From: an uncultured Planctomycetia bacterium
Lineage (GTDB): Bacteria; Omnitrophota; Gorgyraeia; VGKH01; JBHPFN01
Assembly: GCA_964406665.1 (NCBI GenBank)
Contig: CAYOSQ010000001.1
Span: 71,412-135,411, forward strand
Length of the DNA stretch: 64,000 nucleotides
Direction of reading: 5' to 3'
Shown: one piece after another, positions 176 to 33,140 of the stretch
Position numbering within the stretch: the first letter of the stretch is position 1
How the letters are laid out: each line of letters begins with the position of its first letter
Position numbers and translations under genes: made by a program
Notes under the pieces: generated by a model
Told to the model about the DNA's origin: nothing
What the model saw: the letters and a program-made list of their open reading frames with translations, nothing else
Databases searched by the model: none

Positions 176-529
176 TTAAGCTGATTTTTTAACTAGTTCA
201 ACTATTTTCTTAAGCGCCTTAGGGTCTGATGTCGCTATTTCTGAAAGCATCTTCCTATCCAGCTCTATCTTAGCGTCCTTCAAACCTTTGATAAACCTGC
301 TATAGGTTAAACCGGCTGCCCGACATGCCGCATTGATGCGCACAATCCAAAGTCTGCGGAAAACTCTCTTTTTTACTTTGCGATCGCGGTATGCATAAAC
401 CATGCTATGCATAATTGATTCTTTAGCATGTCTATAGCGTTTACTTCTATCGCCAAATTGTCCCTTGGCTTTTTTCAGGACTCTTTTTTTTCTTTTGCGA
501 CTTGCTACTGAATGTTTTACTCGAGCCAT
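176..529 (-). CDS. rplT: 50S ribosomal protein L20
   Basis: Translation [23 protein letters not shown]...RINAACR is a clear L20 pattern; sits in the canonical thrS-infC-rpmI-rplT operon. Confidence 0.9.
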
Positions 530-8229: not shown

Positions 8230-8421
8230 TCAAGTGTTTTTTTCGTTTTTAAGCTGAACAGAGATCTTAGCCGGCTTAGCGCCTTTCATGCCAAAAAGCC
8301 CTTTTTGCTCCTCGGAAAGCACTTTAACCACAATTTCTTCTCTGGAAACCTTAAGTTCAGCTAGTGCCTTCTGAATGGCTTCTTCTACATTTGAGCCTTC
8401 AAATTCTAAAGGTTTATCCAT
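8230..8421 (-). CDS. Jag/KhpB N-terminal domain-only small protein (63 aa)
   Basis: Sits immediately after yidC where jag normally lies; EAIQKALAELKVSREEIVVKVLSE resembles Jag_N, but no KH or R3H domains follow. Confidence 0.45.
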   Translation of the reverse strand: MDKPLEFEGSNVEEAIQKALAELKVSREEIVVKVLSEEQKGLFGMKGAKPAKISVQLKNEKNT

Positions 8422-10003: not shown

Positions 10004-10006
10004 ATT

Positions 10007-10213
10007 TTATTCTACAGGATCGTAGCCTCCTTCAAATAATTGATTACATCTTGCAACCCTGGAAACACCTTTTATTGTTCCTTTGACAAAACCCCATCTG
10101 TCCAGCGAACTTAAAAAATATTCAGAGCAAGACGGATAATACCTACAACTATGTGGTAGTATAGGGCTGATACATTTCCGATAAAAATTTATGAGAAGCT
10201 TTAGTATTATCAT
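10007..10213 (-). CDS. yidD: membrane protein insertion efficiency factor YidD
   Basis: ISPILPHSCRYYPSCSEY signature. Confidence 0.85.
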   Translation of the reverse strand: MIILKLLINFYRKCISPILPHSCRYYPSCSEYFLSSLDRWGFVKGTIKGVSRVARCNQLFEGGYDPVE

Positions 10214-10221
10214 GGATAGTA

Positions 10222-10359
10222 TCAGACAGCTAGACGCGCGCGGCCTTTGCGACGTCGTCGTTTTAAAACTGCGCGGCCAGAAGCAGAGCGCATTTTCCGA
10301 CGGAAACCATGCGTGCGCTTACCTTTTTTCTTTGTAGGAGTAGTGAGTGTTTTCTTCAT
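10222..10359 (-). CDS. rpmH: 50S ribosomal protein L34
   Basis: Hand translation of the reverse strand gives MKKTLTTPTKKKGKRTHGFRRKMRSASGRAVLKRRRRKGRARLAV; not in the supplied ORF track because it is below the length cutoff. Confidence 0.85.
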   Translation of the reverse strand: MKKTLTTPTKKKGKRTHGFRRKMRSASGRAVLKRRRRKGRARLAV

Positions 10360-10631
10360 GGTTTCAGAATTATAACATAATGGCTGTTGAAGTCAAGTAA
10401 TTTTGGCAGATAAAAATCGCATTGCAAATATTGTTGTTATGAATAACTGTGTTTTATTTTTTTGCATAGATCTGTTTTGGCAAAAATTTTTCATAGCGGT
10501 TTTTTTCACCTAAATAATTTCCTTTTGAGAATTAATAGCTATCAAAAAATGAAGAGAAAAATTTCCTTGAAAAATGTTTTTTCTTTGTTATAATGGTAAC
10601 ACTTAATTACAAAACTGGCTGTGCATAACTT

Positions 10632-10640
10632 GTGAATAAT
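10632..10640 (-). promoter_or_regulatory. DnaA-box-like 9-mer (TTATTCACA on the minus strand) in the rpmH-dnaA intergenic region
   Basis: Matches TTATNCACA; the same 9-mer recurs at 12093..12101. Confidence 0.3.
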
Positions 10641-10714
10641 GTTAATAACCGATTTTCAGTTATAGTGTGTTTACGAATTGCATGTGTTTCTCGCCGAGAA
10701 AATAGAAAGTTGCC

Positions 10715-12061
10715 GTGGAATTAAAAGAATTAAAAACTTATTGGGAACAAGCTCAGGGCTTTATTAAAGATCATGTTGGCCAAGCTGCGTATGAGACTTG
10801 GTTCTCTTCAATCCAGGCCGTACCCGCAAGCCCTGACCAAATCTTCCTTGAGATGCCTGATGACTTTTTCAAAGAGTGGGTGGTTGAACACTATGAAAAA
10901 ATCATACAGGAGTCGCTTAATAATGTTTCCGCTGAGGTCATCAAACTTGCTTTTAGGGTTAATCCTGATGTGATAAAAAAAGATGCTGTTGTTAAAGAAG
11001 TATCTCTCACACCAAGATACCCAATTCAAAACAGAAGACCTGCAGCTAACTTAAATCCGCGTTTTTCTTTTGATAGTTTTGTTGTGGGGCCCAGCAATCG
11101 CTTTACCCATGCTGCCTGTCAAGCCGTGGCTGAATCGCCTGCGAAAGCTTACAATCCGCTATTTATCTACGGTAAAGTAGGCTTGGGCAAAACTCATCTT
11201 ATGCAGGCAGTGGTACAAAAAATACGACAAGGCAAACCCGACTTGACGAGCTGTTATATAACTTCTGAACGCTTTACAAACGAACTTATAAACGCGATTC
11301 AACACCACTCAACCGAAAAATTCCGTCATAAATATAGGGAAATCGATATCCTACTTATTGATGATATCCAATTTATCGCCGGGAAGGAAGCCACACAAGA
11401 AGAATTTTTTCATACTTTTAACGCACTATATGACAACCATAACCAAATCGTGCTTTCTTCTGATAGGCCGCCTAAAGAAATTCAACACATGGAAGAAAGG
11501 CTTGTTTCTCGGTTCGCCTGGGGGCTTATAACTGACATACAACCACCGGATTACGAAACCCGTGTAGCCATTCTAAGGAAAAAAATTGAGAGAGAGCCCG
11601 TTAAGGCTCCTGATGATGTTATAGAATTTATTGCTCAACAAATTCAATCTAATATTCGCGAACTAGAGGGTGCACTTATTCGCGTGGTGGCATACTCGTT
11701 GTTGGAGGAAAAAGAAATTTGTTTAAGTATGGCTCAGGACGTTCTTAAAGATCTAGTGCGAGAAACCAGGGTGAATATCTCGGTTGAGGTTATTCAAAAA
11801 AAGGTGGCGGAAACATTTAATATCTCCATAAATGAACTTAAAGCAAAAAAGAGGAATAAAAACATTGTATTACCTAGGCAAATTGCTATGTTTCTATCTA
11901 GAGAACTTACAAATCTATCTTTGCCGGAAATCGGCGAGTCTTTTGGTGGTAAAGACCACACAACAATTTTACATGCCTGGAATAAAATACAAAGGGTCAT
12001 CAAAGAAGATCGAGACCTAAAATCAACGGTTGATAGAATTGTTCAAGGGTTTAAACAATAA
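10715..12061 (+). CDS. dnaA: chromosomal replication initiator DnaA (GTG start)
   Basis: AAA+ Walker A GKVGLGKTHL, box VII, and a C-terminal DNA-binding domain. Confidence 0.95.
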   Translation: MELKELKTYWEQAQGFIKDHVGQAAYETWFSSIQAVPASPDQIFLEMPDDFFKEWVVEHYEKIIQESLNNVSAEVIKLAFRVNPDVIKKDAVVKEVSLTPRYPIQNRRPAANLNPRFSFDSFVVGPSNRFTHAACQAVAESPAKAYNPLFIYGKVGLGKTHLMQAVVQKIRQGKPDLTSCYITSERFTNELINAIQHHSTEKFRHKYREIDILLIDDIQFIAGKEATQEEFFHTFNALYDNHNQIVLSSDRPPKEIQHMEERLVSRFAWGLITDIQPPDYETRVAILRKKIEREPVKAPDDVIEFIAQQIQSNIRELEGALIRVVAYSLLEEKEICLSMAQDVLKDLVRETRVNISVEVIQKKVAETFNISINELKAKKRNKNIVLPRQIAMFLSRELTNLSLPEIGESFGGKDHTTILHAWNKIQRVIKEDRDLKSTVDRIVQGFKQ

Positions 12062-12206
12062 TACACAAGGTTATACATATATTATTCACAAGACGAATTA
12101 TTATATTATATTTAACTTAAAACACTTAGAAACATATTAACTTATAAACAAACACTATTATAACTATTACTATTTTTATGTTAATAAATATATATAAGGA
12201 GACTCA
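12062..12206 (+). promoter_or_regulatory. candidate oriC / DNA-unwinding region between dnaA and dnaN
   Basis: Extremely AT-rich 145-bp spacer containing TTATTCACA (12093..12101). Confidence 0.35.
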
Positions 12207-13289
12207 ATGAAAATTCAAATTGACAAAGGAGATTTATTAAAAGGTATCCAAACAGTACAAAACACAATATCTTCAAAAATAAGCCTACCCATTTTAAACA
12301 ATATACTTATAGAAACACAGGGTAAAAACTTACGGTTTATAGGTACTGATTTAGATGTTGGTATATCCTGTTTAGCACCTGTTAACATTTTAAGTGAGGG
12401 AGCGATAACTTTACCAGCAAAAAAAATAGGCGATATCATAAGAGAGCTACCAAATGGTGAGGTTACTGTTATTGTTAAAAAGAACAACATGGTTGACATA
12501 GAAAGCGGCAGCTGTAGATTTAAATTAATGGGGTTGCCAAAAGATGAATTTCCAAAACTACCTGAATTTAAAGATAAAGAGTCTATAAAAATACCCAGGG
12601 AAGACTTAAAAGAAATGTTAAACCTAACCTCCTTCGCTGTGTCACATGAAGAAACACGCTATATTTTAAACGGAATTTTACTAGAGGTGAAAAACGGTGT
12701 TTTAAGATTGGTTGCAACCGACGGAAGAAGGCTGGCTTTGGCAGAGAAAAAAATAGATGCAAAAAAAGAGATAAGTGTTATATTGCCGATAAAAGCTGTA
12801 CAAGAACTAGTGCGCAACATTGTAGATGAGGGACCGTTGTCGCTTGTTGTGAGTGGTACACAAGCATTGTTTGAGATGGATGATTTTTTAATGGTTTCTC
12901 GTTTGATTGAAGGAGAGTTTCCTAATTATAACCAAGTTATTCCCGAAGCTACGGAAAATAAGATTAAGGTTGGTCGCGGAGAATTTTTAGCTGCTATTAA
13001 AAGAGCCAATCTTTTGTCTACTCAAGATTCTCAAGCGGTAAAATTTGAAATCTTCAAAAATCGCGTAGTTGTTTCTAAGGTAACCCCAGATTTAGGAGAG
13101 TCTCGAGAAGATGTGGGTGTAGAGTATTCAGGAAAAGAATTTTTTGTGGGATTTAACCCACACTATTTAATAGATGTATTAAAAAATCTCAATCAAGAAA
13201 CCATTGAGCTTGAGGTTACTGAAGCTGATAAACCTGGTGTAGTTAGAGCCCCGGGATATTTGTATCTAGTACTTCCTATGAGGTTGTAG
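12207..13289 (+). CDS. dnaN: DNA polymerase III beta sliding clamp
   Basis: MKIQIDKGDLLKGIQTV... three-domain clamp; dnaA-dnaN synteny. Confidence 0.95.
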   Translation: MKIQIDKGDLLKGIQTVQNTISSKISLPILNNILIETQGKNLRFIGTDLDVGISCLAPVNILSEGAITLPAKKIGDIIRELPNGEVTVIVKKNNMVDIESGSCRFKLMGLPKDEFPKLPEFKDKESIKIPREDLKEMLNLTSFAVSHEETRYILNGILLEVKNGVLRLVATDGRRLALAEKKIDAKKEISVILPIKAVQELVRNIVDEGPLSLVVSGTQALFEMDDFLMVSRLIEGEFPNYNQVIPEATENKIKVGRGEFLAAIKRANLLSTQDSQAVKFEIFKNRVVVSKVTPDLGESREDVGVEYSGKEFFVGFNPHYLIDVLKNLNQETIELEVTEADKPGVVRAPGYLYLVLPMRL

Positions 13290-18733: not shown

Positions 18734-18843
18734 TAATTTTTTGTTTTGAAAGCGCTATCTCAAAAAGGCCTAATTCAGTGGCAAACTTACTATTAGCGTG
18801 ATATACTATAGGTGCGGAAGTAATACAATCGAATATAATAAAA

Positions 18844-18869
18844 GGGTCAAGAAATTGACCCTTTTTTTG
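18844..18869 (+). terminator. rho-independent terminator after gyrA-tRNA-Glu
   Basis: gggtcaa-gaaa-ttgaccc hairpin followed by TTTTTTT. Confidence 0.6.
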
Positions 18870-18974: not shown

Positions 18975-19003
18975 TTGACATAATAATAAGCAAGTAGTAA
19001 AAT
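18975..19003 (+). promoter_or_regulatory. sigma70-like promoter (TTGACA-17-TAAAAT) upstream of the secreted-protein cluster
   Basis: Consensus hexamers with 17-bp spacing, visible in the sequence. Confidence 0.4.
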
Positions 19004-19093
19004 AATCGCTAAGATTGACAACATGGATTTACCCAACTTCCTGAAAATTTTTATTAACAAAAGAAGTCGCTAGAAAAACTAGGACTTAAAGCC

Positions 19094-20509
19094 ATGGAAA
19101 GAAAGCCAAAAATCATATCTAAACACTCTTCAAAAGCATACCTATTATTTTTAATGGTCATAGGGGTTTGTTTTCTTTCTGCCAATACCTGCTTTGCTGC
19201 TTTCACTTTAAACGCTACTCCTTATGAAGGTGGATTCGACTTACGTTTTGGTTCTGTTGCAGGTGGGGCAAAGGCAAATAAGGAAGTTTCTATTAGCGTA
19301 ACAAGCGATATTGCAAAACAATATCGTGTAATTCAAACTTTTGCTCCTCTTACCAACTCAAAAGGTACAAAGCTGCCAACAAATTCTGTGAGAGTATATA
19401 CATTAAGAGGTTCTAATGCGGCAGGTACTTTGGGCTATGATGTTGAAAGCCCAATTTTTTTAGGCCCGATGGTTCTTTATACTTCTGCAAGCGCTGGCCG
19501 CAGCGATTCTTTTGTTGCAGTTTATTCTGTTGATGTGCCGGCAGATCAGGATCCTGGGCTGTATCGTGGCAGATTGATTTATAGTCTGGAGCCGATTGGA
19601 GCAGCTAACCAGGCACCAGTTATTAAAACACTAAATATATCTGTTGAAGTTGGATCATCTGCACAGCTTAAGGTCGAGACAATAACCGGCGGGAAGACAG
19701 TTATTTTAAAAACTTCCGCAAGTCAACAGGATTTATCACGAGACGTACGCATACAAGTAACTGGTTCTCTGGGCAATCGTTATCGTATTGTACAAAAACT
19801 GTCTAGGCCGATTACTAGTGCAACAGGAAAACAAATTGCCAAAGAGGGTGTATCTCTTTATGCACAAGGTGGAGAAAAAGGACAGCTTGGTATAAAAAAA
19901 CTCAGCTCTTTACCTGCAACGAATGTTATTTTATATACTTCTGACGAGCGCGGCAGCGCCGATGAAATCATTTTAACTTTTGCTTTGAATGATATCGATC
20001 AAGACGCCGGGATTTACCGTGGTGCATTAACATATACGATTGAAAGCTCTGTTCCTGTTAAGGGTGCAGGCATGACACAGATGTTGCCAATAGAAATTGA
20101 GGTGACTCCGTTGTTTAATCTTGTTGTTACAACAGATCATTCGGGCAGCATCGTTTTTAGAGATTTAAAACCGAACCAGCCTCCCAAGACAAGCGTATCT
20201 TATGTTGAGATCAAAACTAATTCTGATAAACCATATCAGGTAATGCAGACGGTTTCTGGTCTTTTAACTACCAAGGAAGGTAAAACAATTCCTGCGGGAT
20301 TTTTTAAATTGAAAACAACATCTGAAGAAAACAAAGATGGAATTAAATATCCTAAAGAGGCTGCTGTAGAGGATGGACAAATGGTTTTATTTACGTCGCG
20401 AGACGGAAAATCTGCGAAGCTGAAAGTTATTTATAAACTGGACATACCAAGAGACATCCATTCCGGTAACTATTCTACCGGAATTATATATTCTTTATTA
20501 GAGATGTAG
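19094..20509 (+). CDS. secreted protein with three tandem SCPU-like (spore coat U / Csu-type pilin-like) domains
   Basis: Signal peptide; three roughly 140-aa repeats each containing an xxYRVIQT-like motif and ending G(L/I)YRG.L.Y(S/T)(L/I)E. Confidence 0.45.
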   Translation: MERKPKIISKHSSKAYLLFLMVIGVCFLSANTCFAAFTLNATPYEGGFDLRFGSVAGGAKANKEVSISVTSDIAKQYRVIQTFAPLTNSKGTKLPTNSVRVYTLRGSNAAGTLGYDVESPIFLGPMVLYTSASAGRSDSFVAVYSVDVPADQDPGLYRGRLIYSLEPIGAANQAPVIKTLNISVEVGSSAQLKVETITGGKTVILKTSASQQDLSRDVRIQVTGSLGNRYRIVQKLSRPITSATGKQIAKEGVSLYAQGGEKGQLGIKKLSSLPATNVILYTSDERGSADEIILTFALNDIDQDAGIYRGALTYTIESSVPVKGAGMTQMLPIEIEVTPLFNLVVTTDHSGSIVFRDLKPNQPPKTSVSYVEIKTNSDKPYQVMQTVSGLLTTKEGKTIPAGFFKLKTTSEENKDGIKYPKEAAVEDGQMVLFTSRDGKSAKLKVIYKLDIPRDIHSGNYSTGIIYSLLEM

Positions 20510-20550
20510 ATGCCTTATTGTAAATCTGACAACGAGGAGGGGAATTACAA

Positions 20551-21171
20551 ATGATTAGAAAAGCAACCATTGCATTGCTAGCGGTATTGTTTTTAGGCAT
20601 GAGTTCAATGTGCTATGCCGACAATATTGTGAACGTAGATGTCAACGCTCAGATCCCCGATATGCTGGAGTTGAGTTCATGGATTAAGTATTTTATGGAC
20701 GAAAACCAAACTCCATTAGGTGATGCTGAAAGCTTTGACTTTGAGACACTGACACATACCCTAGAAGGAGGAGGAGAGGCCGGCGTATGGTTTTCGAGGA
20801 AATGGTTTACCATTTATCTCGTTGCTAATACTGGTGGCAGACGCTATCAGCTTAAGCAAACCTGTACTGGTGTAACCTCTGGTGGCAACGACATCAACAG
20901 CGCATTCGTTGTTACGCCTAATTATTCAGAATATGATGAATTAGGTGGTGTACCACAGGGTCCGATTCCTGGAACAATAGGTGTTCCAAATTTGGCTGTA
21001 TCAACAGACCATGTCCTTTATACAAGTGACACTGGTGGTTTAGCTCGTATAATCCAGGGTATTTACGCTATTCCTAACGAGAGCGAAGTAACTGGATATG
21101 AATCAATTAGTTTTGATACTCCACAGGGTGTTTACGGTGGTGAGGTAGTTCTTACAGCGGTGCTGTATTAA
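20551..21171 (+). CDS. secreted single-domain SCPU-like putative pilus subunit
   Basis: Signal peptide; RRYQLKQT and C-terminal GVYGGEVVLTAVLY, homologous to the repeats in the upstream gene. Confidence 0.4.
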   Translation: MIRKATIALLAVLFLGMSSMCYADNIVNVDVNAQIPDMLELSSWIKYFMDENQTPLGDAESFDFETLTHTLEGGGEAGVWFSRKWFTIYLVANTGGRRYQLKQTCTGVTSGGNDINSAFVVTPNYSEYDELGGVPQGPIPGTIGVPNLAVSTDHVLYTSDTGGLARIIQGIYAIPNESEVTGYESISFDTPQGVYGGEVVLTAVLY

Positions 21172-21176
21172 TATAT

Positions 21177-21360
21177 AGTTAAGGGGAAACAGTTGACCTC
21201 TTGCACAGCGCAGATCTTGTCTTTATAAGCTGCGATAGGCAAAACTTGTTGCCAGCTGAATAATAAATTCAAGAGAAAGCTTGTCATAATCTTTGATTGT
21301 TTGGTATAATATCATATAATATTTATCAAAGATTAAAAGGGGTCTGTGTTTCCCCTTAAC
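21177..21360. repeat. 15-bp perfect inverted repeats (agttaaggggaaaca / tgtttccccttaact) flanking a 154-bp segment that carries a TTGTCA-18-TATAAT promoter
   Basis: IR-L 21177..21191 and IR-R 21346..21360, visible in the sequence. Confidence 0.5.
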
Positions 21361-21391
21361 TATTATAAAGCACTAATTTATAAGGAGGCAA

Positions 21392-22237
21392 ATGAACATA
21401 AGGCATTTGTTGATGAAGAGAATCTGTCTATGGTTTTTAATTTGTGCTGCTTTGTGCTTGTTTGGTGTAGTTTATAATGCTGATGCAAGCACAGTCCGCC
21501 TGCAAAGACCAAAGGTTAGATTGAGCATTCCCTCCGGAAGTACTGAAAGCGGTTCAATTACAGTAGCTAATCCCTCGGATAAGAACGTAAATGTTAAAGC
21601 GTATCTCGAAGACTGGATATATACAGCCACACAAGATGGAATTAAAGATTTTGCTCCGCCAGGGACAACTCCTTTGTCGTGTGCGAAATGGATCAGCTTT
21701 TATCCTGCCGAATTTACTCTGCCGCCGTTTGGGTCTAGGGAAATATTTTTCGTGGTTAAAGTTCCCAAGGCAGTAGACGGTGGACATTATGCAGTATTAT
21801 TTTTTGAAACCGTTGTGGGATCAACTGTAGATGCTACCGGAGTCAATATTTTAATTAAAGGGCGCATTGGGTCATTATTTTATATAGAGGCAGGGGGCGT
21901 ACAAAAAGAAGCAACCATTACAGATATTTCTATTGCTAAAGCAGGTAAGGAAACTGCAATAGAAGCAGTTTTAAATAATATTGGCAACGTTGATATAACC
22001 GCCAACGGTTCTTTCAATATCATCGACAGCAAGGGCATGGTTTTTGCAAGAGGTAAGTTTAATGAGGTTTACACTTTTCCTGGAGATAAGGCGACCATAG
22101 CATCTGCTTGGTCTGCGAAAATTCCTGCAGGAGAGTATGATTTAATAATAACGTTGGACTTAGGCAATAAACCTTTAATATACGAAGCAAAGATTAATGT
22201 AAATGCTGCTGGCGAGGTACGCTATGTTGCCCCTTAA
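21392..22237 (+). CDS. PapD-like periplasmic pilus chaperone-like protein
   Basis: Signal peptide; VRLSIPSGSTESGSITVANPSDKNVNVKAYLEDW, ISFYPAEFTLPPFGSREIFFVV and VNILIKGRIGSLFYIE resemble the N-domain strands of chaperone-usher chaperones. Confidence 0.4.
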   Translation: MNIRHLLMKRICLWFLICAALCLFGVVYNADASTVRLQRPKVRLSIPSGSTESGSITVANPSDKNVNVKAYLEDWIYTATQDGIKDFAPPGTTPLSCAKWISFYPAEFTLPPFGSREIFFVVKVPKAVDGGHYAVLFFETVVGSTVDATGVNILIKGRIGSLFYIEAGGVQKEATITDISIAKAGKETAIEAVLNNIGNVDITANGSFNIIDSKGMVFARGKFNEVYTFPGDKATIASAWSAKIPAGEYDLIITLDLGNKPLIYEAKINVNAAGEVRYVAP

Positions 22238-22258
22238 GAATAGAAAAAAAAGGAGTTT

Positions 22259-25200
22259 ATGCGTAGCTGTAAAAACAGTCAGAGTATTTGTTTAAAAACA
22301 ATCATCGCAAGATGTATTCTTGCGATTCTTACATTGTCCTTTTTTTCTGCAAGCCTTCTTTTTCTCTCCAGCAGCCCAGCTTACTCTGAAGACCTTTCTG
22401 ATTTCCTCTGTGAATTAGCCACCAAATATTATGAGCGCGGAGATTATCCTAACGCGTTACACGAATTCAAAAAAGCTTTAATGATCAATCCCCATAATCG
22501 CACTGCGCAAAAATACATTGCAATTATCAGCGATCTAGAAGAAGTTGTTGTTGAGCCATCACCTTATCTGCCCATCGAAAGCATTCCTCAGGAATACAGA
22601 GACAAAGCTATTAAAAATGCACTGGATAGTTTTGATGAGGTTATTTTTGTAAAAGAGCCATATATCCAAGAAGAAACAGAATCTCAACCACCATTAATTA
22701 TTATTGATTCAGATGACGAACAAACTTTTCCTCAAGAAGAGCTGGATAAGTTTGATGAGGTCAGGGTCTCTAGAGAGCAGACTATTTTGGAAGATGTTCC
22801 TAAAGAACCCTCGATAGTAATATCTCCTGTGCAGGATAGGGAGATTATTGTTCGAAGTGCGCTCGATGAATTCGAAGCACGGTATGGGGCGGAAGATATT
22901 GTAGATATTGTGCCAGAGCCAGAAGAGATTGTTGAGGAAGAGCCCGAACACGAAGAAGCTATTTATTATCCTATCGAACCAGAGGAAGAATTTCCAGAGG
23001 AATTTGTTTCTACATCTTATGTTGAACCTTCCACAGACATAGAAAAGCCAAAGGGTTTTAAGCGTCTTTATCTTAATGTAGAAGTTAGGGCTTCGCAGCC
23101 ACAAACACAAATAAGTTTACAAATAGACAGAGATTTAATAATTATTGGAAGTAATATTGCTAGGTTTCTTGTGATTAATCCTGAAATTTTAGAGATTGTT
23201 AGATTGCGTCCCGACGAGATAAAGCTTGTGGCTAAGAAAATTGGAAGTACTTACGTGCATATCTGGGATGATGAAGGCCGGTGGACTTTTATCGTTCAAG
23301 TGTCACCGTTTCGCTCTGGCAGGCCGACACTTGCCGAGCTATATCGTCAGCAAGCCGAAGAGGCTGGTTCGTTAAAATTCCATTATTATAATGAATGGCG
23401 TTCGTTTTATTCTGGAAGAAGAGCGGATAACCTAACAAGGGATTCTCTTACTCTATATCAAAGCTTGGGTCTTGATATGCAGACTCCTTATGGAGATGTT
23501 GATGGCCGCGTTCAATTAAACAGGCTAAATGAAGAAAGCGAGCTCTCATTTTATACTTTAGGATTAACCGATGGCATGGTAGGTCCGTTTAAGAATTTTG
23601 ATCTACGTGCTTTAGATTATTATATAGATTTTGATAATATTTCTTTTGGTGGTGCGAGCTTGCGCGGTGTGAGGTTAGATGCAGAAGCATTTAATGAAAA
23701 AGTGGATTATACGGTTTTCTGGGGCAAAGAGAAAAGTGGGGCATTTGGTCCACTTGCTCCGGGGCTTGAGGGTTCAAACAAGTCATATCTTAAAGGTATA
23801 AATTTTGGATTCAACTCTCCGGAAAACCTTTATCAGACGCTTTCCTATTTCGCCGGATATGGTTCTGATAGGAGTTCTTTGTTGTTCCAAGATGCCTATG
23901 ATTATACGGGCGAGCTTAACTTAGGCGATACAAAATTATTTACCAACGTCGGACACGATGGCTATTCTCTGGCTTATATGCTAAGAGGTGTATATACCGT
24001 TCCTAAGCTTCAGTTAGCCGGCGAGTTTAGAAATATTGACGATGATTTTTATAGCATAACCGGCAGACCTTATGCATCAGGAGAAGTTGGTGGTTTGGTG
24101 AGCTATCGCTATGCCCCTTCCAGAGATCTAGATATCTCAGGACGCCTGAATGTTTATAGGGACACCTTGTTTCCTAACCCTCAACACAAAGAAAGATATA
24201 ATGCGGATTTCGATACTGCCATACGCTATACCATTAATCCTAGTACATCTATGAGGTTAGATTATTATAATGTTCATGATACCGGCACTATATCGCCGCA
24301 TAAAGATGAGTCTGTAGGATTATCCTTGTACAAAACAATTGATTTCATTAGGCCGCTTAGTACGTTTGTAAACTTAAGACATCAATCTAGTAAAAATCCT
24401 AGTTCGACAACTCTGGACTATAAAAATGAAAAAGCTGGCTTTGGCGTAAGAGTTGGCTTAACCGATACGCTTAATTATTATATCTCCAAGGAATTCAATT
24501 GGCTGGAGGATTATGCCGGAGATGTAGAAAAACCGCATGTTTTTGAGACGGGGCTTGATTATAATACCCAAATTCTCGACAGCCCGTTTTATATAACCTC
24601 TAGGCTTTATTTCCGGGATGAAGAAAATGCTGCTTCAACAAGAAGTTTCTTGGCTGGTGAAGATAATTTAGAAGGACAGGCTGAATTAAGGTATACCCCC
24701 AACGAAGATTTTAATTGCTACGCAAATCTACGAGTTAATAACTACTGGGCGGAAAACGCCGATACTACCAAGCGCACAGAAGCAGAGATTCGTTTCGGTA
24801 CACAATGGACTTTTGATACCGGCTTGAAATGGAATCCCATAGGTAGCATAACAGGCATTGTTTTTAAAGACTTGAATTCAGATGGCAAGCGTCAAGCGGA
24901 CGAGATTGTTATGAAGGATATTAAAATTTTCTTAGGAAGAGAAAAATTTGATATAACCGATGAAGAAGGAGCGTATATCTTTAAAAATATCCGTGCTCGC
25001 AAAGCCTTTGTTTACTTAGATACTAATACGCTACCAGCTGGATATGTGCCGACGGAAGAGAAATCCCAAGAGATAACAATTCAAAACGGCAAACTTATAA
25101 ATGTTGATTTTGGTGTTATAGCGCGTTCCGAAATATATGGTATTGTGTTTAAAGACTTAAATAGCAACGGAGAATTTGATGCTCAAGACGAAGGCGTGAG

Positions 25201-25420
25201 AGATGCTGTTCTATCTTTAGAAGATGGTTTAACAACCTCTACGAATGCAAGAGGTCAGTTTTATTTAAGAGAAGTTGCTCCTGGAAAACACACTCTTACC
25301 CTAGACATAAATAGCCTACCTATTAATCTTATTCCTTTGGTGCCGTTATTTAAAGAGATAGAGGTGTTTGAGGGAATTACCTATGTGCACAATATTCCTT
25401 TGAAAGAAACACAAGACTAA
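22259..25420 (+). CDS. large outer-membrane/cell-surface protein: N-terminal TPR, acidic linker, pilus-assembly (CpaC/secretin-N-like) domain, beta-rich Y/G/D/N region, and two C-terminal Cna-B/SdrD-B-like domains; putative usher-like component
   Basis: Motifs LQIDRDLIIIGSNIARFLVINPEILEIVRLRPDEIKLVAKKIGSTYVHIWDDEG; duplicated GIVFKDLNS(D/N)G...D modules at the C-terminus. Confidence 0.45.
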   Translation: MRSCKNSQSICLKTIIARCILAILTLSFFSASLLFLSSSPAYSEDLSDFLCELATKYYERGDYPNALHEFKKALMINPHNRTAQKYIAIISDLEEVVVEPSPYLPIESIPQEYRDKAIKNALDSFDEVIFVKEPYIQEETESQPPLIIIDSDDEQTFPQEELDKFDEVRVSREQTILEDVPKEPSIVISPVQDREIIVRSALDEFEARYGAEDIVDIVPEPEEIVEEEPEHEEAIYYPIEPEEEFPEEFVSTSYVEPSTDIEKPKGFKRLYLNVEVRASQPQTQISLQIDRDLIIIGSNIARFLVINPEILEIVRLRPDEIKLVAKKIGSTYVHIWDDEGRWTFIVQVSPFRSGRPTLAELYRQQAEEAGSLKFHYYNEWRSFYSGRRADNLTRDSLTLYQSLGLDMQTPYGDVDGRVQLNRLNEESELSFYTLGLTDGMVGPFKNFDLRALDYYIDFDNISFGGASLRGVRLDAEAFNEKVDYTVFWGKEKSGAFGPLAPGLEGSNKSYLKGINFGFNSPENLYQTLSYFAGYGSDRSSLLFQDAYDYTGELNLGDTKLFTNVGHDGYSLAYMLRGVYTVPKLQLAGEFRNIDDDFYSITGRPYASGEVGGLVSYRYAPSRDLDISGRLNVYRDTLFPNPQHKERYNADFDTAIRYTINPSTSMRLDYYNVHDTGTISPHKDESVGLSLYKTIDFIRPLSTFVNLRHQSSKNPSSTTLDYKNEKAGFGVRVGLTDTLNYYISKEFNWLEDYAGDVEKPHVFETGLDYNTQILDSPFYITSRLYFRDEENAASTRSFLAGEDNLEGQAELRYTPNEDFNCYANLRVNNYWAENADTTKRTEAEIRFGTQWTFDTGLKWNPIGSITGIVFKDLNSDGKRQADEIVMKDIKIFLGREKFDITDEEGAYIFKNIRARKAFVYLDTNTLPAGYVPTEEKSQEITIQNGKLINVDFGVIARSEIYGIVFKDLNSNGEFDAQDEGVRDAVLSLEDGLTTSTNARGQFYLREVAPGKHTLTLDINSLPINLIPLVPLFKEIEVFEGITYVHNIPLKETQD

Positions 25421-25471: not shown

Positions 25472-25726
25472 TTATCTTTCATAAAAGCTGTACAATTTAG
25501 CTTCTGTTAAGCGCTCTTCCTGAACACACAGCCTTTTTGTAGTATCTCGAATTTCAGCTTTAGCAGCTTCGATTTCACTTTGTTCTGTGTCCATCTCTAG
25601 CAATGCAGGGATTCTTGCAGAAACAGAAACTCGAGCAGTATTACCTGCCTCTACCGCGCTAGCCATCAAAGCGCAACCCAGCAAAATAATAACTAAAACG
25701 TTTGTAATAATCATTGTCTTTTTCAT
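25472..25726 (-). CDS. small secreted hypothetical protein (start at MKKTMII, preceded by GGAGGTG)
   Basis: Signal peptide followed by a charged helical region; the gene downstream of the tandem riboswitch candidates. Confidence 0.5.
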   Translation of the reverse strand: MKKTMIITNVLVIILLGCALMASAVEAGNTARVSVSARIPALLEMDTEQSEIEAAKAEIRDTTKRLCVQEERLTEAKLYSFYER

Positions 25727-25754
25727 CGGTACCACCTCCATAAATTTTCAAAAA

Positions 25755-25782
25755 AAGCCCCTTCGAAAGAAGGGGCTTTGCA
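25755..25782 (-). terminator. intrinsic terminator (expression platform of riboswitch 2)
   Basis: Minus strand aaagcccctt-ctttcgaa-ggggcttt followed by TTTTTTGAAAATTT, immediately upstream of the CDS start. Confidence 0.55.
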
Positions 25783-25812: not shown

Positions 25813-25905
25813 CTACGGCAACCCGACAACCATAAAGACAGCCGATGTCTTTTTAGGCTCAAGGCTTTGTGCCCTACTCTTTCGAAGTAGTTTACTTTTA
25901 AGGAT
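25813..25905 (-). ncRNA. candidate c-di-GMP-I (GEMM) riboswitch aptamer, copy 2 (proximal to the CDS)
   Basis: Minus-strand RNA GUAAACUACUUCGAAAGAGUAGGGCACAAAGCCUUGAGCCUAAAAAGACAUCGGCUGUCUUUAUGGUUGUCGGGUUGCC matches the recalled GEMM-I consensus (GCAAACC, GAAA-capped P1, GGACGCAAAGCC, GGGUUACC-like 3' end). Confidence 0.55.
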
Positions 25906-25929
25906 TTGAAAGAACGTTGCTTCCAACAA

Positions 25930-25960
25930 AAAACCCTAGAATTTTTCTAGGGTTGCTACT
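25930..25960 (-). terminator. intrinsic terminator (expression platform of riboswitch 1)
   Basis: Minus strand ccctagaaaaattctaggg followed by TTTTTTGTTGG. Confidence 0.55.
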
Positions 25961-25961
25961 T

Positions 25962-26042
25962 TTGGCAACCCTGCCGCCTTCCCCCTTTCGGGAATAAGGC
26001 CGTTGGTTTTGCGTCCTTAGATTTCTCTAAGTTTGCCTTTTT
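25962..26042 (-). ncRNA. candidate c-di-GMP-I (GEMM) riboswitch aptamer, copy 1 (distal)
   Basis: Minus-strand RNA GCAAACUUAGAGAAAUCUAAGGACGCAAAACCAACGGCCUUAUUCCCGAAAGGGGGAAGGCGGCAGGGUUGCC; P1 CUUAGA-GAAA-UCUAAG with the GACGCAAAACC core. Confidence 0.5.
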
Positions 26043-26237
26043 CAAAAGCTAATATACTCTATAGAAACTATAGCACACAAAAAGCGCTTTTTCAAGTTGG
26101 CCAGGTAAATTTCTGAAAATTTTTAAACATCCTATTATGACATTTAAGCGTAACCGCTGAATTAGCTTTACTTTAGGTTTCTGCTATGATAGAATAGCAT
26201 TCACATTCAACAATATTTTTTAATCAAAAAACAAAAA

Positions 26238-29016: not shown

Positions 29017-30342
29017 ATGAGGTCAAGAGGATTTTCTTTACAAGAAGTTCTGATTACTATTGTTTTAGTTCTTGTTTTAGGTGGGGCAGCGTTTAAAGCA
29101 CTTGTTGTTGGCCAAAACACATTTTTTTCTAGCTCTGCTCTGCTAGACTTGCAGCAACATGCTCGTGAAGGCATAGATAGAATGACAGATGAATTACGAC
29201 ACAGCGCATCGGGAAAAGTTACAATTTATCAATGTCCTTCAGAAGTATGTGAGGGTGGCGCTATAGCATTTCAGGTTCCTGTAGTTACGGATGATCCTAT
29301 AGCTGGAAGCACATTTAAACCAACCGGCTTTGGTGCCGCACAGAAAAAGTGGGGGTTTGATGGAAGGGAAAGTTCTTCACCAATTATTTATTTGGCTCCT
29401 GCTGCCGGCGGTGCTTTGTCTCAATATAGTGGTAAATTAATTAGATTAACATCCAAAGATCAATATTGTGGAAATGGTATCTGTGAGACCGGAGAAACAA
29501 TAGCTTGTTGTCCTGATTGTAGTTTTGTTTCTGGTGATGGAGTATGTTGTTCTAATTTAGGAGAACGCTCTTGGAATTCTAGCGATTGCGGGGCTTGTTT
29601 TCTTAAAGAGACGCCCATACAGATGGCAGATGGAACTTCAAAAAATATTGAAGATATAAAAATTGGTGATATGGTATTATCTTTTGATGAGCAGGAAAAG
29701 AAGTTAGTGGCTGACGAAGTAAAAAACGTTGCTAAACAAAAAGCAGATAATTATATTATAATAAATGGCCATTTAAGGGTTACACCCAATCATCCGTTTT
29801 ATAGTAATGGTCGATGGATGCCCATAGGAGATCTACAAGTAGGAGATGTTATTTTTACTTCACAAGCCAAAGAAGAGCTTATTACGGAAATTGTAAAAGT
29901 TGAAGATACTGTTGAAGTATATGATATAGAAGTTAATCCATATCATAATTATTTTGCCGGAGGCTATCTAGTGCACAATAAGGAGGTATTGCCAGAAATA
30001 CCACCAGTTATGGAAGGTGGCGGTTCGTTTGAAATACCTGGCGGGCGCAGTTGGCTAGGGCCTCGTTTGTTTCTAGGCATAGCCTTTGCTCAGGAAGTTT
30101 CTCCTTTAGCACCAAATATAGATATGTATGATACATTGCCTGCGCTTGACAGTATATCTAATTATGATATTAAGATTCTTGCAGAAGACGTTAGAGGGGT
30201 TTATTTTCTTGGTACGCCCCTTCCGCCGGATAAGCCAAACACCGTAACAGTATTTGTGGATATGTATAAAGAGATTTTTGGCGGCGGTGACGTGCAGACA
30301 CATTTATCAACAGAGATGAAGTTAAGAAATCTTAGTTTGTAA
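29017..30342 (+). CDS. type IV pilin-like protein (class III signal peptide RG|FSLQE) with a Cys-rich module and an embedded Hint/BIL domain (about nt 29596..29979)
   Basis: N-terminal MRSRGFSLQEVLITIVLVLVL; Hint blocks CFLKETPIQMADGTSKNIEDIKIGDMVLS, TPNHPFY and VYDIEVNPYHNYFAGGYLVHN. Confidence 0.6.
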   Translation: MRSRGFSLQEVLITIVLVLVLGGAAFKALVVGQNTFFSSSALLDLQQHAREGIDRMTDELRHSASGKVTIYQCPSEVCEGGAIAFQVPVVTDDPIAGSTFKPTGFGAAQKKWGFDGRESSSPIIYLAPAAGGALSQYSGKLIRLTSKDQYCGNGICETGETIACCPDCSFVSGDGVCCSNLGERSWNSSDCGACFLKETPIQMADGTSKNIEDIKIGDMVLSFDEQEKKLVADEVKNVAKQKADNYIIINGHLRVTPNHPFYSNGRWMPIGDLQVGDVIFTSQAKEELITEIVKVEDTVEVYDIEVNPYHNYFAGGYLVHNKEVLPEIPPVMEGGGSFEIPGGRSWLGPRLFLGIAFAQEVSPLAPNIDMYDTLPALDSISNYDIKILAEDVRGVYFLGTPLPPDKPNTVTVFVDMYKEIFGGGDVQTHLSTEMKLRNLSL

Positions 30343-30368: not shown

Positions 30369-33140
30369 ATGATGAGAAGCTTTAGGCTTAACAACAAGGG
30401 AGCAGCTCTTCTGCTAATTTCTCTTTTATCGCTTATAATGTTAGCGGTTATCGCAGGAGTTCTGTTTTCTCGCACTGTAGGAGAAAATCTGTTGGTTAAA
30501 AATGAACAGATCAGCTTTGAAGCACAGTATGCTGCAGAACAAGGAGCGGAGGCGGTATATTTAGAGCTATTAAATGCTCCGTTTCGTTCTCGGTGGTATA
30601 CACACGAAGTTCCCAATTTTCACTTTGGAGACAATACTTTGGATCAGGCGAATCCTCCTGTCGTTTCTACGGCCGATCTCGTAGTTCCCAACACCATGAT
30701 TAATACTTTAGGAGAATATGCTTCTACTGATGGTAGCAATGTCAGCTTTATTGCTAAAATATATAATGATCCTTCTACTTTATATTCCGGAAGAGAAAAA
30801 ATTATCCTGATAAAAGGTTTTAGCAGTGATGGAAGGCGCTCAAGATTATTGGCTGTTAAGGCTTCGATGCATTCTTTATTTGAATATTTTATGTTTGCCC
30901 CAACAACAGGAATAAATTTTGAAGGCGGTACTTTTGATGCCGGCGGAGGTAAAATTCATTCCGAAGGCGGGATGCAATTTTATTCAGGTGCAGAGATTAA
31001 TAATGTAAGTCAGCTAAGCACTTCCGGCGGATCATTTTTCTACTATACGTATCCACGCAGACCACCATTATGGATTGATCCTGTTGCTGGAGTTCCGCCA
31101 CCAGGAATGTTTACAGATGCCGACGGAAGAACTTTGGCTATGCGCGAAGATACAGGATCGCCGGATGGAACCACTTGGGCAGAGATATTTGCTCTTGGGC
31201 CTGATTTTGCTCCTGAAGACTATTGGCAACAGGGGTGGTGTGGCAATGCAGAAGCATTTGAGGAGTGCTCTTTTGATGTTCAGGCAGCCACTATGTATCC
31301 TGATACAGGCGCCGAAGGTCTCTTAGAGGATAAGTTTATACACCAAAGCACTACCGGTCGCTTAATGGGAGATAGGTATGGAGCTATTTGTTATAACCCG
31401 AATGTAGGTTATGAAACCAGTTGGGATTGTGCAGAGCTCTGGGGTACATATGAGGCAGGAGCGATTTGGGATATGGTTGATCCAGATTTTGATACTGATT
31501 CTGCAAGAGTATATATGTATGATGATTATGGATCATCTACGGAATTAAACAGTAGCGCAGCTACAATACAGCCCGTAGGCGCAGATCCTGTTAAGCTTCC
31601 TAACAGGCTTTTGGATTCTCCATATAGACGACCTAAATATTATACTGATCAGAATCAAGAGGGATATCGCCGCGAAGAACATGATGGGGAGCATTATGTT
31701 TATCCTGCTAATACAGGAGCGGGGGCATATGATCCGGAGGACATGGAAGGTACTTGTTCGGGTGAGGTATGTCCAGATGTTACATATCTTAACAGTCTTA
31801 AACAGCCGGAATCTTGGTCTACATTTTTGCAAGATACCGGATTATACGGAACTGTAATGGATGCTAACACAGGCGCACCAGAAGAAGGCATTGCTCCTCC
31901 GAGAATAGACGCTGATGCATTAAGGGATCTTGCCATGCAAGATGGCATTAGGATTATTAATACTGTGGATTCTGAGGAGTGGAATGATAATCCAGAACTA
32001 TATTATGAGAATCCTGACTTTACTTTGCAAGACAACGGAAGCTACCAGGTTATAATCAAGGGGCAGATTTACATGCCAAATCCAGAAGGCAAGATTATAG
32101 TTAATATACCTGGGTTAGGTTCAGTCACTCTGTTTGAAAAAATAGGGTTTTATCGCGCAATTGATACACACTACGAACAATCTGTCAAAATCGACGTAGG
32201 TAATCTTAAGGCTGCTATGGCGGAAGATCCTGATAATTTTGCCACAGATTTAAACTTTGCTTATTCCGATTACCCAGTAGCCTTGGTAAATGGAGAAAGT
32301 CTCCCAGAGGGTGGTTGGAGTGTTGTTTCCGACGGAGCAGTTTATATAACAGGTAATTACAATACCGTTGATTATCAACCAGCTATGGTTTTAACGCCGG
32401 TTAATAAAACATATCTGCTTGGTCCGGATTACGATTTTCCTGACTATGTTCCGTATACTTTGGAGCATGTAGACGAAAACTACAATATGCCTGATGGGGA
32501 ACAGGATTGGTGGAATAATAATTATAATGATCAGAAACCATCAGAAGTTAATGAGGATATGACATATCGTGTATCGATAATAGGTTATAATGCTGCAAAA
32601 ACTACTTGGTTGCGTTGGGAAAACAGTAATGAGATTTGGAGTGATTGGAATGGAGGGCCAGATCGTCCATGGATTACGAAAGAGATCGCAGGAACTTTGT
32701 ATCGTCTGCCGTATGATCCAAGTGCTTCTCCGGGTGACGAGGATTATTATAATCGTGTATACGACTATGGAGGTGTTGGTAGAATTGCAAGAAGAAAATG
32801 TACGGGTTGCAATGGCGTAGGTCATACCATGGGTATTGTTCCTGATGGAGCCGGATATGCTGTTTGTCGAGGTTGTTCGGAATGGTGTTTTACTCCAGGA
32901 GAAGGAGTGAGTGCGACTAACATAGGCTCTTTATGTGATAATTACGATGGCCCTCAAGCCTCTACTGGTACTAACAGCACTACTTATTCTTGGGAGCCAG
33001 ATTATATGAATGGTAATTTGCCGCCCCCTGATTTAGCAGGTATGAATTTTGCTGCCTGGATGTTGCTTGCGGACACACAAGAGAATTTTAATAATCACCT
33101 AAGTGCATTGCAAAGTGAGGAAACTGAAATTATAGAATAA
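30369..33140 (+). CDS. large (923 aa) PilX-like minor-pilin/tip-associated protein with C-terminal CxxC pairs
   Basis: N-terminal NNKGAALLLISLLSLIMLAVIAGVLFSRTVGENLLVKNE resembles PilX_N; C-terminal CTGCNGVGH...CRGCSEWC. Confidence 0.45.
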   Translation: MMRSFRLNNKGAALLLISLLSLIMLAVIAGVLFSRTVGENLLVKNEQISFEAQYAAEQGAEAVYLELLNAPFRSRWYTHEVPNFHFGDNTLDQANPPVVSTADLVVPNTMINTLGEYASTDGSNVSFIAKIYNDPSTLYSGREKIILIKGFSSDGRRSRLLAVKASMHSLFEYFMFAPTTGINFEGGTFDAGGGKIHSEGGMQFYSGAEINNVSQLSTSGGSFFYYTYPRRPPLWIDPVAGVPPPGMFTDADGRTLAMREDTGSPDGTTWAEIFALGPDFAPEDYWQQGWCGNAEAFEECSFDVQAATMYPDTGAEGLLEDKFIHQSTTGRLMGDRYGAICYNPNVGYETSWDCAELWGTYEAGAIWDMVDPDFDTDSARVYMYDDYGSSTELNSSAATIQPVGADPVKLPNRLLDSPYRRPKYYTDQNQEGYRREEHDGEHYVYPANTGAGAYDPEDMEGTCSGEVCPDVTYLNSLKQPESWSTFLQDTGLYGTVMDANTGAPEEGIAPPRIDADALRDLAMQDGIRIINTVDSEEWNDNPELYYENPDFTLQDNGSYQVIIKGQIYMPNPEGKIIVNIPGLGSVTLFEKIGFYRAIDTHYEQSVKIDVGNLKAAMAEDPDNFATDLNFAYSDYPVALVNGESLPEGGWSVVSDGAVYITGNYNTVDYQPAMVLTPVNKTYLLGPDYDFPDYVPYTLEHVDENYNMPDGEQDWWNNNYNDQKPSEVNEDMTYRVSIIGYNAAKTTWLRWENSNEIWSDWNGGPDRPWITKEIAGTLYRLPYDPSASPGDEDYYNRVYDYGGVGRIARRKCTGCNGVGHTMGIVPDGAGYAVCRGCSEWCFTPGEGVSATNIGSLCDNYDGPQASTGTNSTTYSWEPDYMNGNLPPPDLAGMNFAAWMLLADTQENFNNHLSALQSEETEIIE

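Follow-up and report, generated by a model that had tools for sequence, protein, structure and literature searches.

Chaperone-usher pili are known chiefly from Proteobacteria and also from some Cyanobacteria and Deinococcus-Thermus. Class 5 pili (CFA/I type, CfaABCE) and Ecp pili (EcpABCDE) are made with the same list of parts, namely a chaperone, a major subunit, an usher and a multi-domain tip, the last combining an adhesin domain with a pilin domain. In the Omnitrophota literature, as far as it was examined, the pili described are of the type IV and Tad kinds; giant proteins are discussed as well, and the words usher, chaperone and fimbria are absent. A cluster of five genes, hereafter called g1 to g5, is described here from a stretch of 64,000 nucleotides (the window) of contig CAYOSQ010000001.1, which belongs to the genome assembly of an uncultured bacterium assigned to the Omnitrophota. 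The genes g1 and g2 code for secreted, subunit-like proteins, g3 for a chaperone-like protein, g4 for an usher-like protein and g5 for a small secreted protein preceded by a cyclic di-GMP (c-di-GMP) riboswitch. On balance, the locus is probably a module, widespread in the Omnitrophota, for the assembly of a fibre or coat on the cell surface, and its mechanism is, overall, probably a divergent form of the chaperone-usher type.

The class 5 and Ecp systems are among the described systems that the cluster resembles most, together with the classical ushers (in architecture only) and the Gram-positive WxL/WxLIP clusters (in the fold of g3 and the set of genes). The cluster has the parts list of the class 5 and Ecp systems, and g3 is a profile relative of the CfaA-type (92 %) and EcpB/E-type (62 %) chaperones. 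The C-terminal strand of the subunits (aGxYxGxvxixxt) and a donor-like strand near the N-terminus (VDVNAQIPDMLEL in g2, ITVTASVDPVIDL in CfaB) recall the class 5 major subunit CfaB. The gene order differs from that of both systems, as does the proposed tip, which consists of three pilin-like domains rather than an adhesin and a pilin domain, and no similarity of sequence links g4 with CfaC/TcfC or EcpC. The protein g5, the TPR and acidic linker of g4 and the riboswitch have no counterparts in class 5 systems, to whose subunits homology is unproven.

An earlier reading of this DNA, made without database searches (the sequence-only reading), had proposed a four-gene chaperone-usher-like system of the archaic SCPU/Csu type. 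Its four open reading frames (ORFs) on the plus strand were found at exactly the positions given, all with signal-peptide-like N-termini, and its core idea is supported by the PapD-type fold of g3 and by the profile homology to CfaA and Ecp chaperones. The fifth gene and the riboswitch aptamers lie outside the coordinates of that reading and were missed by it. The archaic (sigma) Csu/CupE pili share with the cluster a similar thin-fibre logic and a Gly-x-Tyr motif in the C-terminal strand, and the chaperone CsuC matches g3 structurally (E 2.6e-9) but ranks under CfaA and SafB. When g1, g2 and their relatives (89 of g2 and 63 of g1) were scanned individually at E up to 1, SCPU (PF05229) was not among the families listed for any of them; the only weak match to recur was DUF4402, in 7 of the 89 g2 relatives (best E 0.0023), and the one match with coordinates covered the last strand only. 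The archaic assignment was given up on these grounds and because the chaperone is nearest to the alternate/class 5 and Ecp groups. The best reading is a divergent chaperone-usher-like fibre system, not specifically one of the Csu/SCPU type.

Conservation of the module

Relatives of g3, sought in one genome per species, are encoded in 132 species-level genomes, nearly all labelled Omnitrophota and including the complete genome of Velamenicoccus archaeovorus LiM. The named homologues of the cluster proteins are all from Candidatus Omnitrophota. The ORFs of 81 distinct related loci were called and then classified with iterated hidden Markov models. The order g1, g2, g3 and g4 on the plus strand followed by g5 on the minus strand was complete in 53 of these loci, most of the others being interrupted by contig ends, and this conservation is far beyond chance. 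Since the flanking genes vary among the genomes, g1 to g5 are regarded as a self-contained module. The genes g3 and g4 are coupled in every locus, often with overlapping or abutting reading frames. Extra g2-g3 pairs occur in 10 loci, and their joint duplication suggests that subunit and partner are inherited together, as is expected of a subunit with a dedicated chaperone. In databases the proteins are labelled 'hypothetical' or 'SdrD B-like', with one JGI entry naming a g3 relative as a PapD chaperone.

Some variants of the module were seen. An additional gene with TIG and PQQ beta-propeller domains is present between g1 and g2 in L003/L013 (1822-3573), and an additional single-domain, g1-like ORF (about 180 amino acids, minus strand) between g4 and g5 in L030, L045 and L072. 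In two genomes not labelled Omnitrophota (L073 and L081) the order is g4'-g2-g2-g1-g3-g4.

The chaperone-like protein g3

The gene g3 (21392-22237, plus strand) codes for 281 amino acids. An AlphaFold (AF2) model built on an alignment of 67 sequences was confident (predicted local distance difference test, pLDDT, 94; predicted template-modelling score, pTM, 0.82) and has an N-terminal signal helix followed by two all-beta domains, the first of which ends with two very long strands (residues 130-146 and 152-167). The segments which the sequence-only reading had called PapD-N-like are beta strands in this model, and the check which it had proposed, whether g3 has a two-domain immunoglobulin (Ig)-like chaperone fold, gave a two-domain fold of the PapD type. 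No C-terminal transmembrane helix is present in the model, the signal helix being the only one of its kind.

In a Foldseek search of the PDB the top match was WxLIP of Enterococcus faecium (9i25_C, E 3.5e-12), with 9i1y also among the best. Dozens of chaperones of chaperone-usher systems followed with E values of 1e-12 to 1e-8, among them SafB, CfaA, CupB2, CsuC, FimC, Caf1M, PapD and EcpB, all at probability 1.00, and also YadV and DraB. The highest TM-scores were those to CfaA (0.60-0.63).

The sequence profiles agree with the fold. The g3 profile matched EcpB among PDB sequences (E 0.011) and, in profile-profile comparison with hhalign, a CfaA-type family aligned from ten plasmid operons (92.3 %, E 5e-7 over 159 columns; reversed control 0.1 %). 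The value for EcpB/E was 61.5 %, and that for six classical Escherichia coli chaperones 21 %, to be compared with 18.6 % for genuine Ecp chaperones against the same classical set. The protein has the fold of the two-domain chaperones that serve pili in the periplasm and is remotely related to them in sequence; it is a member of the PapD-like superfamily, nearest to the alternate/Ecp chaperones and to WxLIP. Pfam and NCBIfam gave no match for g1, g2 or g3; g3 itself had none to PapD_N or PapD_C, and PapD_N matched weakly in 2 of its 67 relatives (best E 0.23). Searches of PDB sequences with g3 as a single sequence, with g2 and with the core of g4 returned nothing useful. K41 and R158 are invariant in g3 and R43 nearly so; within domain 1 these residues fall on the first strand and on the last, which is long. 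They were examined as candidate counterparts of Arg8 and Lys112 of PapD, the basic residues by which the cleft of a chaperone holds the C-terminus of its subunit.

The subunit-like proteins g1 and g2

The gene g1 (19094-20509, plus strand) codes for a secreted protein of 471 amino acids, proposed to be the tip fibrillum, and g2 (20551-21171, plus strand) for a secreted single-domain protein of 206 amino acids with the N-terminal extension VNVDVNAQIPDMLEL, proposed to be the polymerising major subunit. A BLAST comparison of g1 with itself found no repeat. With alignments from 63 orthologues, the three domains of g1, d1 (residues 36-170, nucleotides 19199-19603), d2 (171-325, 19604-20068) and d3 (326-471, 20069-20506), were mutually homologous in profile-profile comparison (99.5-99.9 %, E 1e-23 to 1e-31), and g2 matched the g1 domains at 92-97.5 %. 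The three domains in g1 and one in g2 that the sequence-only reading had proposed are borne out by these profiles; its triple-domain subunit is real and looks unusual for chaperone-usher systems.

The same reading had a terminal-strand motif in all of the domains. The exact pattern is present in two copies in g1, GLYRGRLIYSL (155-165) and GIYRGALTYTI (306-316), but the third copy in g1, GNYSTGIIYSL, has an insertion of one residue, and the copy in g2, GVYGGEVVLTA, has L for Y. A glycine 14 residues from the C-terminus is a hallmark of classical pilins, used here as a lead and not as a test. In all 89 relatives of g2 and in 62 of 63 relatives of g1, the distance between the motif glycine and the C-terminus is 14 residues (range 12-16). 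As judged from profiles and motif positions, g1 and g2 are built of one type of predicted domain, ending exactly at the pilin-like final strand.

With a conserved GG as anchor for the N-terminus and for the junction lengths, mature g1 begins 10 residues before the GG in 63 of 63 orthologues. The inter-domain junctions are 29-44 residues long, so that each has about 22-24 extra residues, and these include a conserved amphipathic strand (VIKTLNISVEV and MLPIEIEVTP in the window). The N-terminal extension of g2, IVNVDVNAQIPDMLEL, is of the same size as the extra segments in the g1 junctions, and the mature N-terminus of g1 is without it. The only match of the g1 profile among PDB sequences was 3f83 (E 0.017), an engineered donor-strand fusion of CfaE and CfaB of CFA/I pili. 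In this alignment the last strand of g1 lies over AGQYMGNIKITFTP, the last strand in 3f83, its linker over the artificial linker DNKQ and its junction strand over the donor strand VEKNITVTASVDPVIDL. The C-terminal strand of g2 matched the CfaB-family pilins at 86 %, over 16 columns only. A match of g2 to classical pilins (69.5 %) spanned the signal peptide and N-terminus and was disregarded.

A segment with the pattern LYTSxxxGxSDxF recurs in the g1 domains and g2 (for example g1 128-140) and gave weak matches to Pfam PD40 in 8 of 63 g1 relatives (best E 2.3e-6). A beta-propeller blade is improbable here, the segment being more likely a hairpin conserved in the domain.

The place of WxLIP at the head of the structural matches of g3 raises the alternative that the locus is a diderm counterpart of the Gram-positive WxL clusters. 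In these, too, there are one small and one large protein and one WxLIP with two Ig-like domains, and in a published AlphaFold model a WxLIP hairpin completes the WxL sandwich (PMC10599100). According to this alternative g1 and g2 would be the large and the small surface beta-sandwich protein, held permanently by a WxLIP-like g3 and not polymerising, and g4 would be an export pore only. It draws support from the two WxLIP structures and from the Pfam family WxLIP_PGBD, which matched weakly, always under the Pfam cut-off, in 26 of the 67 g3 relatives scanned individually, compared with the 2 of 67 for PapD_N. Membership of WxLIP was judged by DUF916, DUF3324 and a C-terminal transmembrane helix, with WxL-domain proteins as partners. 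The helix is absent from g3, and for g1 and g2 no WxL motif, no WxL match among the Pfam matches listed and no PDB sequence match to a WxL chain was found. Polymerisation is not known for the WxL proteins, which bind peptidoglycan. The host here is a diderm, and the cluster codes for an usher-like protein of the outer membrane; this protein and the orphan donor-like strand of g5 better suit the assembly of a polymer, and the extension of g2 matches the junction strands of g1. Strand complementation is common to both readings, which differ mainly on whether a polymer is formed, and the WxL counterpart is considered improbable beside a fibre assembled in the chaperone-usher manner.

The small protein g5 and the c-di-GMP riboswitch

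The gene g5 (25472-25741, minus strand) codes for a small secreted protein. Translation probably starts from the ATG at 25726 (MKKTMII...), which is preceded by the Shine-Dalgarno sequence GGAGGTG. Of the 58 loci in which there was space for it, 52 have g5 on the minus strand at most 700 nucleotides after g4. In its relatives a signal peptide is followed by a mature N-terminus that is conserved, a polar or acidic linker that varies and a C-terminal strand that is again conserved (LYSFYER in the window, TIYSR elsewhere). The mature N-terminus resembles a donor strand, ARVSVSARIPALLEM in the window and sIxVSCTIPAIPGVNAP in most taxa. The motif resembles the N-terminal extension of g2 and shifts with it clade by clade. 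A donor-like strand is present in the g1 inter-domain junctions, at the N-terminus of g2 and in g5.

A tandem c-di-GMP-I riboswitch (25814-26047) is located on the minus strand directly upstream of g5. Aptamer 1 (25961-26047; 78.2 bits, E 1e-14) and aptamer 2 (25814-25906; 62.9 bits, E 7e-11) are both far over the gathering score of 35 of Rfam RF01051. Each has its own intrinsic terminator, at 25932-25954 (AACCCUAGAAAAAUUCUAGGGUU, then a U-run) in unit 1 and at 25755-25778 (AAGCCCCUUCUUUCGAAGGGGCUU, then a U-run) in unit 2, and a promoter-like site (TTGAAA-17-TATAGT with a TG extension; consensus scan) is present at 26067-26095, also on the minus strand. At the gathering score, a c-di-GMP-I or c-di-GMP-I-GGC aptamer was found upstream of g5 in 20 of 25 related loci scanned; that of V. 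archaeovorus (locus L055, NZ_CP019384.1 at about 1.122-1.129 Mb) scored 34.7 bits, just below it. A strong terminator followed 23 of 25 aptamers. When prefixes of the transcript were folded, in both units a strand of the unformed aptamer paired with the 5' arm of the terminator as a predicted antiterminator, which in unit 1 consists of the aptamer 3' strand AGGGUUGC and the terminator arm GCAACCCU. The folding suggests that both units are OFF switches, and g5 is probably, judging by its sequence and this predicted control, an orphan donor strand repressed by c-di-GMP. A more specific role for g5, the capping or blocking of subunits by its donor-like strand, is offered tentatively and with some doubt.

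The aptamers are like those of other c-di-GMP-I (GEMM-I) riboswitches, including tandem ones, in exceeding the gathering score and having their own terminators. They are unlike the known cases in that the regulated gene codes for a small secreted peptide of a pilus-type module. We know of no description of c-di-GMP riboswitch control of a chaperone-usher-type system, and none turned up in the literature, in which no search was aimed at this combination. In locus L082 a borderline c-di-GMP-I aptamer (324-418, plus strand; 37.6 bits) is located immediately 5' of g1 and extends over its predicted start; the structural genes may also be under riboswitch control in some genomes.

A conserved cytoplasmic protein of about 80-100 amino acids (QRVVTFLNRDEVDFLDKLGKDALF...; QRVVTFLNRDEVDFLDKLGKDALFSTGLKLSRAKLIAWLIDF...), which had no Pfam match, is encoded between the riboswitch and g5 in 27 loci (L003 8330-8593, minus strand; L007, L014, L029 and 23 more) and is absent from the window. 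It may be a small regulator.

Alternatively, the riboswitch could act by antisense transcription. Read-through from the g5 promoter into g4 and g3 would then lower their expression, and g5 would be a minor or unrelated secreted peptide. The two genes g5 and g4 are convergent, with stop codons 51 nucleotides apart and no terminator predicted between them, and c-di-GMP riboswitches are the class most common in antisense orientation (PMC9943018). The g5 ORF is, however, conserved throughout the phylum with its signal peptide and both terminal motifs, its N-terminus co-varies with that of g2, and the second conserved protein gene between the riboswitch and g5 in 27 loci points to a coding operon. 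Antisense action as the main function is thus held to be rather unlikely, and the two mechanisms could act together.

The usher-like protein g4

The gene g4 (22259-25420, plus strand) codes for an outer-membrane usher-like protein of 1053 amino acids. Pfam matches were found to TPR (residues 48-80), T2SS-T3SS_pil_N (287-348, E 2.5e-8), SdrD_B (863-936, E 8.5e-12) and CarboxypepD_reg-like (974-1015), in agreement with the TPR, secretin-N-like and two Cna-B-like domains proposed in the sequence-only reading. In the window, the TPR is encoded at 22400-22498, followed by an acidic linker, and the N-domain at 23105-23305; nucleotides 23375-24817 code for the barrel, of about 24 strands, together with a conserved insert of low model confidence, and the C-terminal beta-sandwiches are encoded at 24842-25153 and 25208-25408. 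The full-length protein matched PDB sequences only of TPR, of SdrD and, weakly, of a secretin N-domain. The core of about 510 residues had no relative among PDB sequences and no Pfam family, with only stray weak matches to generic outer-membrane barrel families.

The family is closed. Among 1.84 billion representative proteins it has 218 representatives, 139 of them below E 1e-30, which are of one length class throughout, with no tail of distant families. In 55 sequences of the g4 core no match to Pfam Usher (PF00577) was found, and signal for PapC_N and PapC_C was also absent.

A model of residues 275-1053 was built from 12 sequences (11 homologues). The best AF2 model (pLDDT 78.8, pTM 0.50) has an N-domain of seven strands (residues 283-349, assigned with DSSP) and then a helix, a barrel of about 24 long strands in about 480 residues (373-853), and two C-terminal beta-sandwich domains (about 862-965 and 984-1050). 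A large barrel is also in keeping with the way hydrophobicity alternates along the alignment. A highly conserved insert of about 70 residues (438-509), modelled with low confidence, is inside the barrel segment and was considered as a candidate for the plug domain of an usher; it seems to follow strand 4, not strand 6. In a Foldseek search of the PDB the top 13 matches of the model were all FimD/PapC ushers, the full-length ones aligning over 760-850 columns (E 2.4e-19 to 1.8e-11) and the FimD barrel alone at 6e-9. The best match other than an usher was PqqU (E 6.9e-9).

The model is thus like FimD and PapC in its predicted layout, in which a beta domain precedes a barrel of some 24 strands and two beta-sandwiches come after it. 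It is unlike them in that the N-domain is of the T2SS-T3SS_pil_N type, the C-domains are SdrD_B/Cna-B-like and an extra TPR and acidic linker of about 180 residues precede these parts. The statement in the sequence-only reading that g4 is not a classic usher stands as far as the sequence is concerned, there being no Pfam Usher match, less than 1 % in hhalign and a closed family of 218, but not for the predicted structure, which has the layout of an usher and the usher matches just given. With fair confidence, g4 is usher-like in its modelled architecture, its homology to ushers being a separate matter; as modelled, it is an usher-like protein to which N-terminal TPR and acidic-linker parts are added, rather than another sort of machine. 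Domain content and barrel size led to the setting aside of Secretin/Tad-type, inverse autotransporter, PgaA/BcsC-type and LptD-type proteins.

Proposed assembly and points weighed against it

In the proposed mechanism, g3 would hold g1 and g2 in the periplasm and donate a strand to complete their fold. The N-domain of g4 would receive the complexes of chaperone and subunit, and the fibre would be threaded through the g4 barrel. The first to enter would be g1, a three-domain tip with d1 and d2 already completed in cis by the strands of the junctions and only d3 still open. The groove of d3 would then be filled by the N-terminal extension of g2, after which g2 would polymerise head to tail. The fibres would most likely be adhesive and on the surface. 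As a donor-like strand without a body, g5 would either cap the last subunit, as a terminator or an anchor, or block subunits in the periplasm before assembly. If both riboswitch units are OFF switches, high c-di-GMP would lower g5 and favour fibre growth; such a permissive effect fits the usual link between c-di-GMP and adhesion. Ending polymerisation with a donor strand in the groove of the last subunit would liken g5 to PapH and FimI. These are full pilin domains, unlike g5, which would be a bare donor strand with a linker and a short C-terminal strand and is separately transcribed under a riboswitch.

Several points weigh against this reading or limit the support for it. That g1 and g2 are Ig-like, lack their last strand and are completed by a donor strand is inferred from their sequences only. 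The full-length comparison of g1 and g2 with CfaB was colinear, with a probability of at most 26 %. Neither CfaB nor the classical pilins gave a significant match over the full length, and homology to known pilins is not established. The co-variation of the N-termini of g5 and g2, which speaks for the reading (mean score 19.5 within the same locus and 11.5 between loci, a difference that no permutation of 10000 reached), comes from a comparison uncorrected for shared phylogeny. The OFF-switch reading is the product of thermodynamic modelling.

For g4, hhalign gave 0.2-0.7 % against each of the usher sets used (the class 5 ushers of the ten plasmid operons, a classical set of six from E. coli K-12, and EcpC), a negative result of limited sensitivity given that the single EcpC sequence reached only 5.9 % against the classical ushers. 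The alignment behind the g4 model was shallow, and the five models spanned pLDDT 49 to 79. TM-scores to ushers were low, about 0.35, and barrel-only usher structures were no better than other large barrels (E 6e-9 compared with 7e-9). Since the barrel alone does not discriminate, the match of g4 to ushers owes much to the shared order of the domains.

The view that g4 is some other large porin or exporter of the outer membrane (such as a secretin relative or, as with PgaA/BcsC, a TPR-barrel exporter) and its usher likeness an artefact of shallow AlphaFold modelling would account for the missing sequence link, the unstable models and the barrel-only scores, and an N-terminal TPR does occur in polysaccharide exporters and T2SS-T3SS_pil_N in CpaC-type secretins, but it is very unlikely in view of the absence of a Secretin domain, a barrel larger than the 16-18 strands of exporters, two Ig-like domains after the barrel as in ushers, the strict coupling of g4 to a PapD-like chaperone gene in every locus and the lack of polysaccharide synthesis genes in the module.

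Transcription signals and genomic setting

A promoter-like site (TTGACA-17-TAAAAT, 11 of 12 matches in a consensus scan) is present upstream of g1 at 18975-19003 on the plus strand. Further upstream, a terminator-like hairpin (18840-18865) ends a tRNA-Glu unit. The spacer between g2 and g3 (21175-21363, plus strand) is structured and has a perfect inverted repeat of 17 nucleotides (21175-21191 and 21347-21363), which encloses 155 nucleotides with promoter-like sites, one of them at 21281-21310. Folded as RNA, the spacer gave -71.4 kcal/mol (z = -7.5). Inverted repeats of different sequence are found at the same place in the close relatives L001 (9778-9972) and L005 (8113-8306), and strong hairpins 3' of g2 in L055 and L029. 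A fimS-like invertible promoter was considered for the repeat and is less favoured: no recombinase gene was seen among the ORFs viewed near the cluster, and relatives have plain hairpins. We favour an RNA structure. The stem could be an attenuator or a processing stem that sets the ratio of subunit to machinery; it could also be an invertible promoter.

The cluster is flanked by gyrA and tRNA-Glu on one side and by glmS on the other, about 9 kb from a likely chromosomal origin of replication. This origin, at 10004-10714 (flanks 8414-13289), is marked by yidC (minus strand), by dnaA and dnaN (both plus strand) and by a change in the sign of the GC skew at about 10 kb. Elsewhere in the window, a protein of 441 amino acids (29017-30342, plus strand) combines a Hint/PT-HINT domain (E 4e-16) with an N-terminal helix like that of prepilins (MRSRGFSLQEVLITIVLVLVLGG) and is followed by an ORF of 923 amino acids without a Pfam match (30369-33140). 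A protein of 1349 amino acids (50683-54732, plus strand) has signatures of M4/M36-type metallopeptidases together with FG-GAP/ASPIC repeats.

Implications

The principle of the pathway is familiar; what appears new here is an usher family not recognisable by sequence, a tip of three tandem domains and a strand-only protein controlled by a riboswitch. A bolder joint reading is possible but doubtful, in which strand mimicry by g5 sets fibre growth post-translationally, the tip of three domains is complemented in cis, the usher family is invisible to sequence comparison and the module is a missing link between WxL/WxLIP and chaperone-usher systems, derived from one strand-complementation system. 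The place of the g3 family between WxLIP and the chaperones of chaperone-usher systems makes it testable whether the pilus chaperones and the Gram-positive WxL system have an origin in common. The unit of riboswitch and g5 offers a concrete model of c-di-GMP control over fibre assembly by way of a small peptide, and it suggests that some c-di-GMP riboswitches taken to be antisense-acting may in fact drive small unannotated genes. If the favoured reading is true, ushers can diverge past recognition by sequence, and other 'dark' outer-membrane proteins encoded beside PapD-like genes may be ushers. The module would then also be a candidate attachment organelle for a phylum of ultra-small, probably host-dependent bacteria, among them the predator V. 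archaeovorus.

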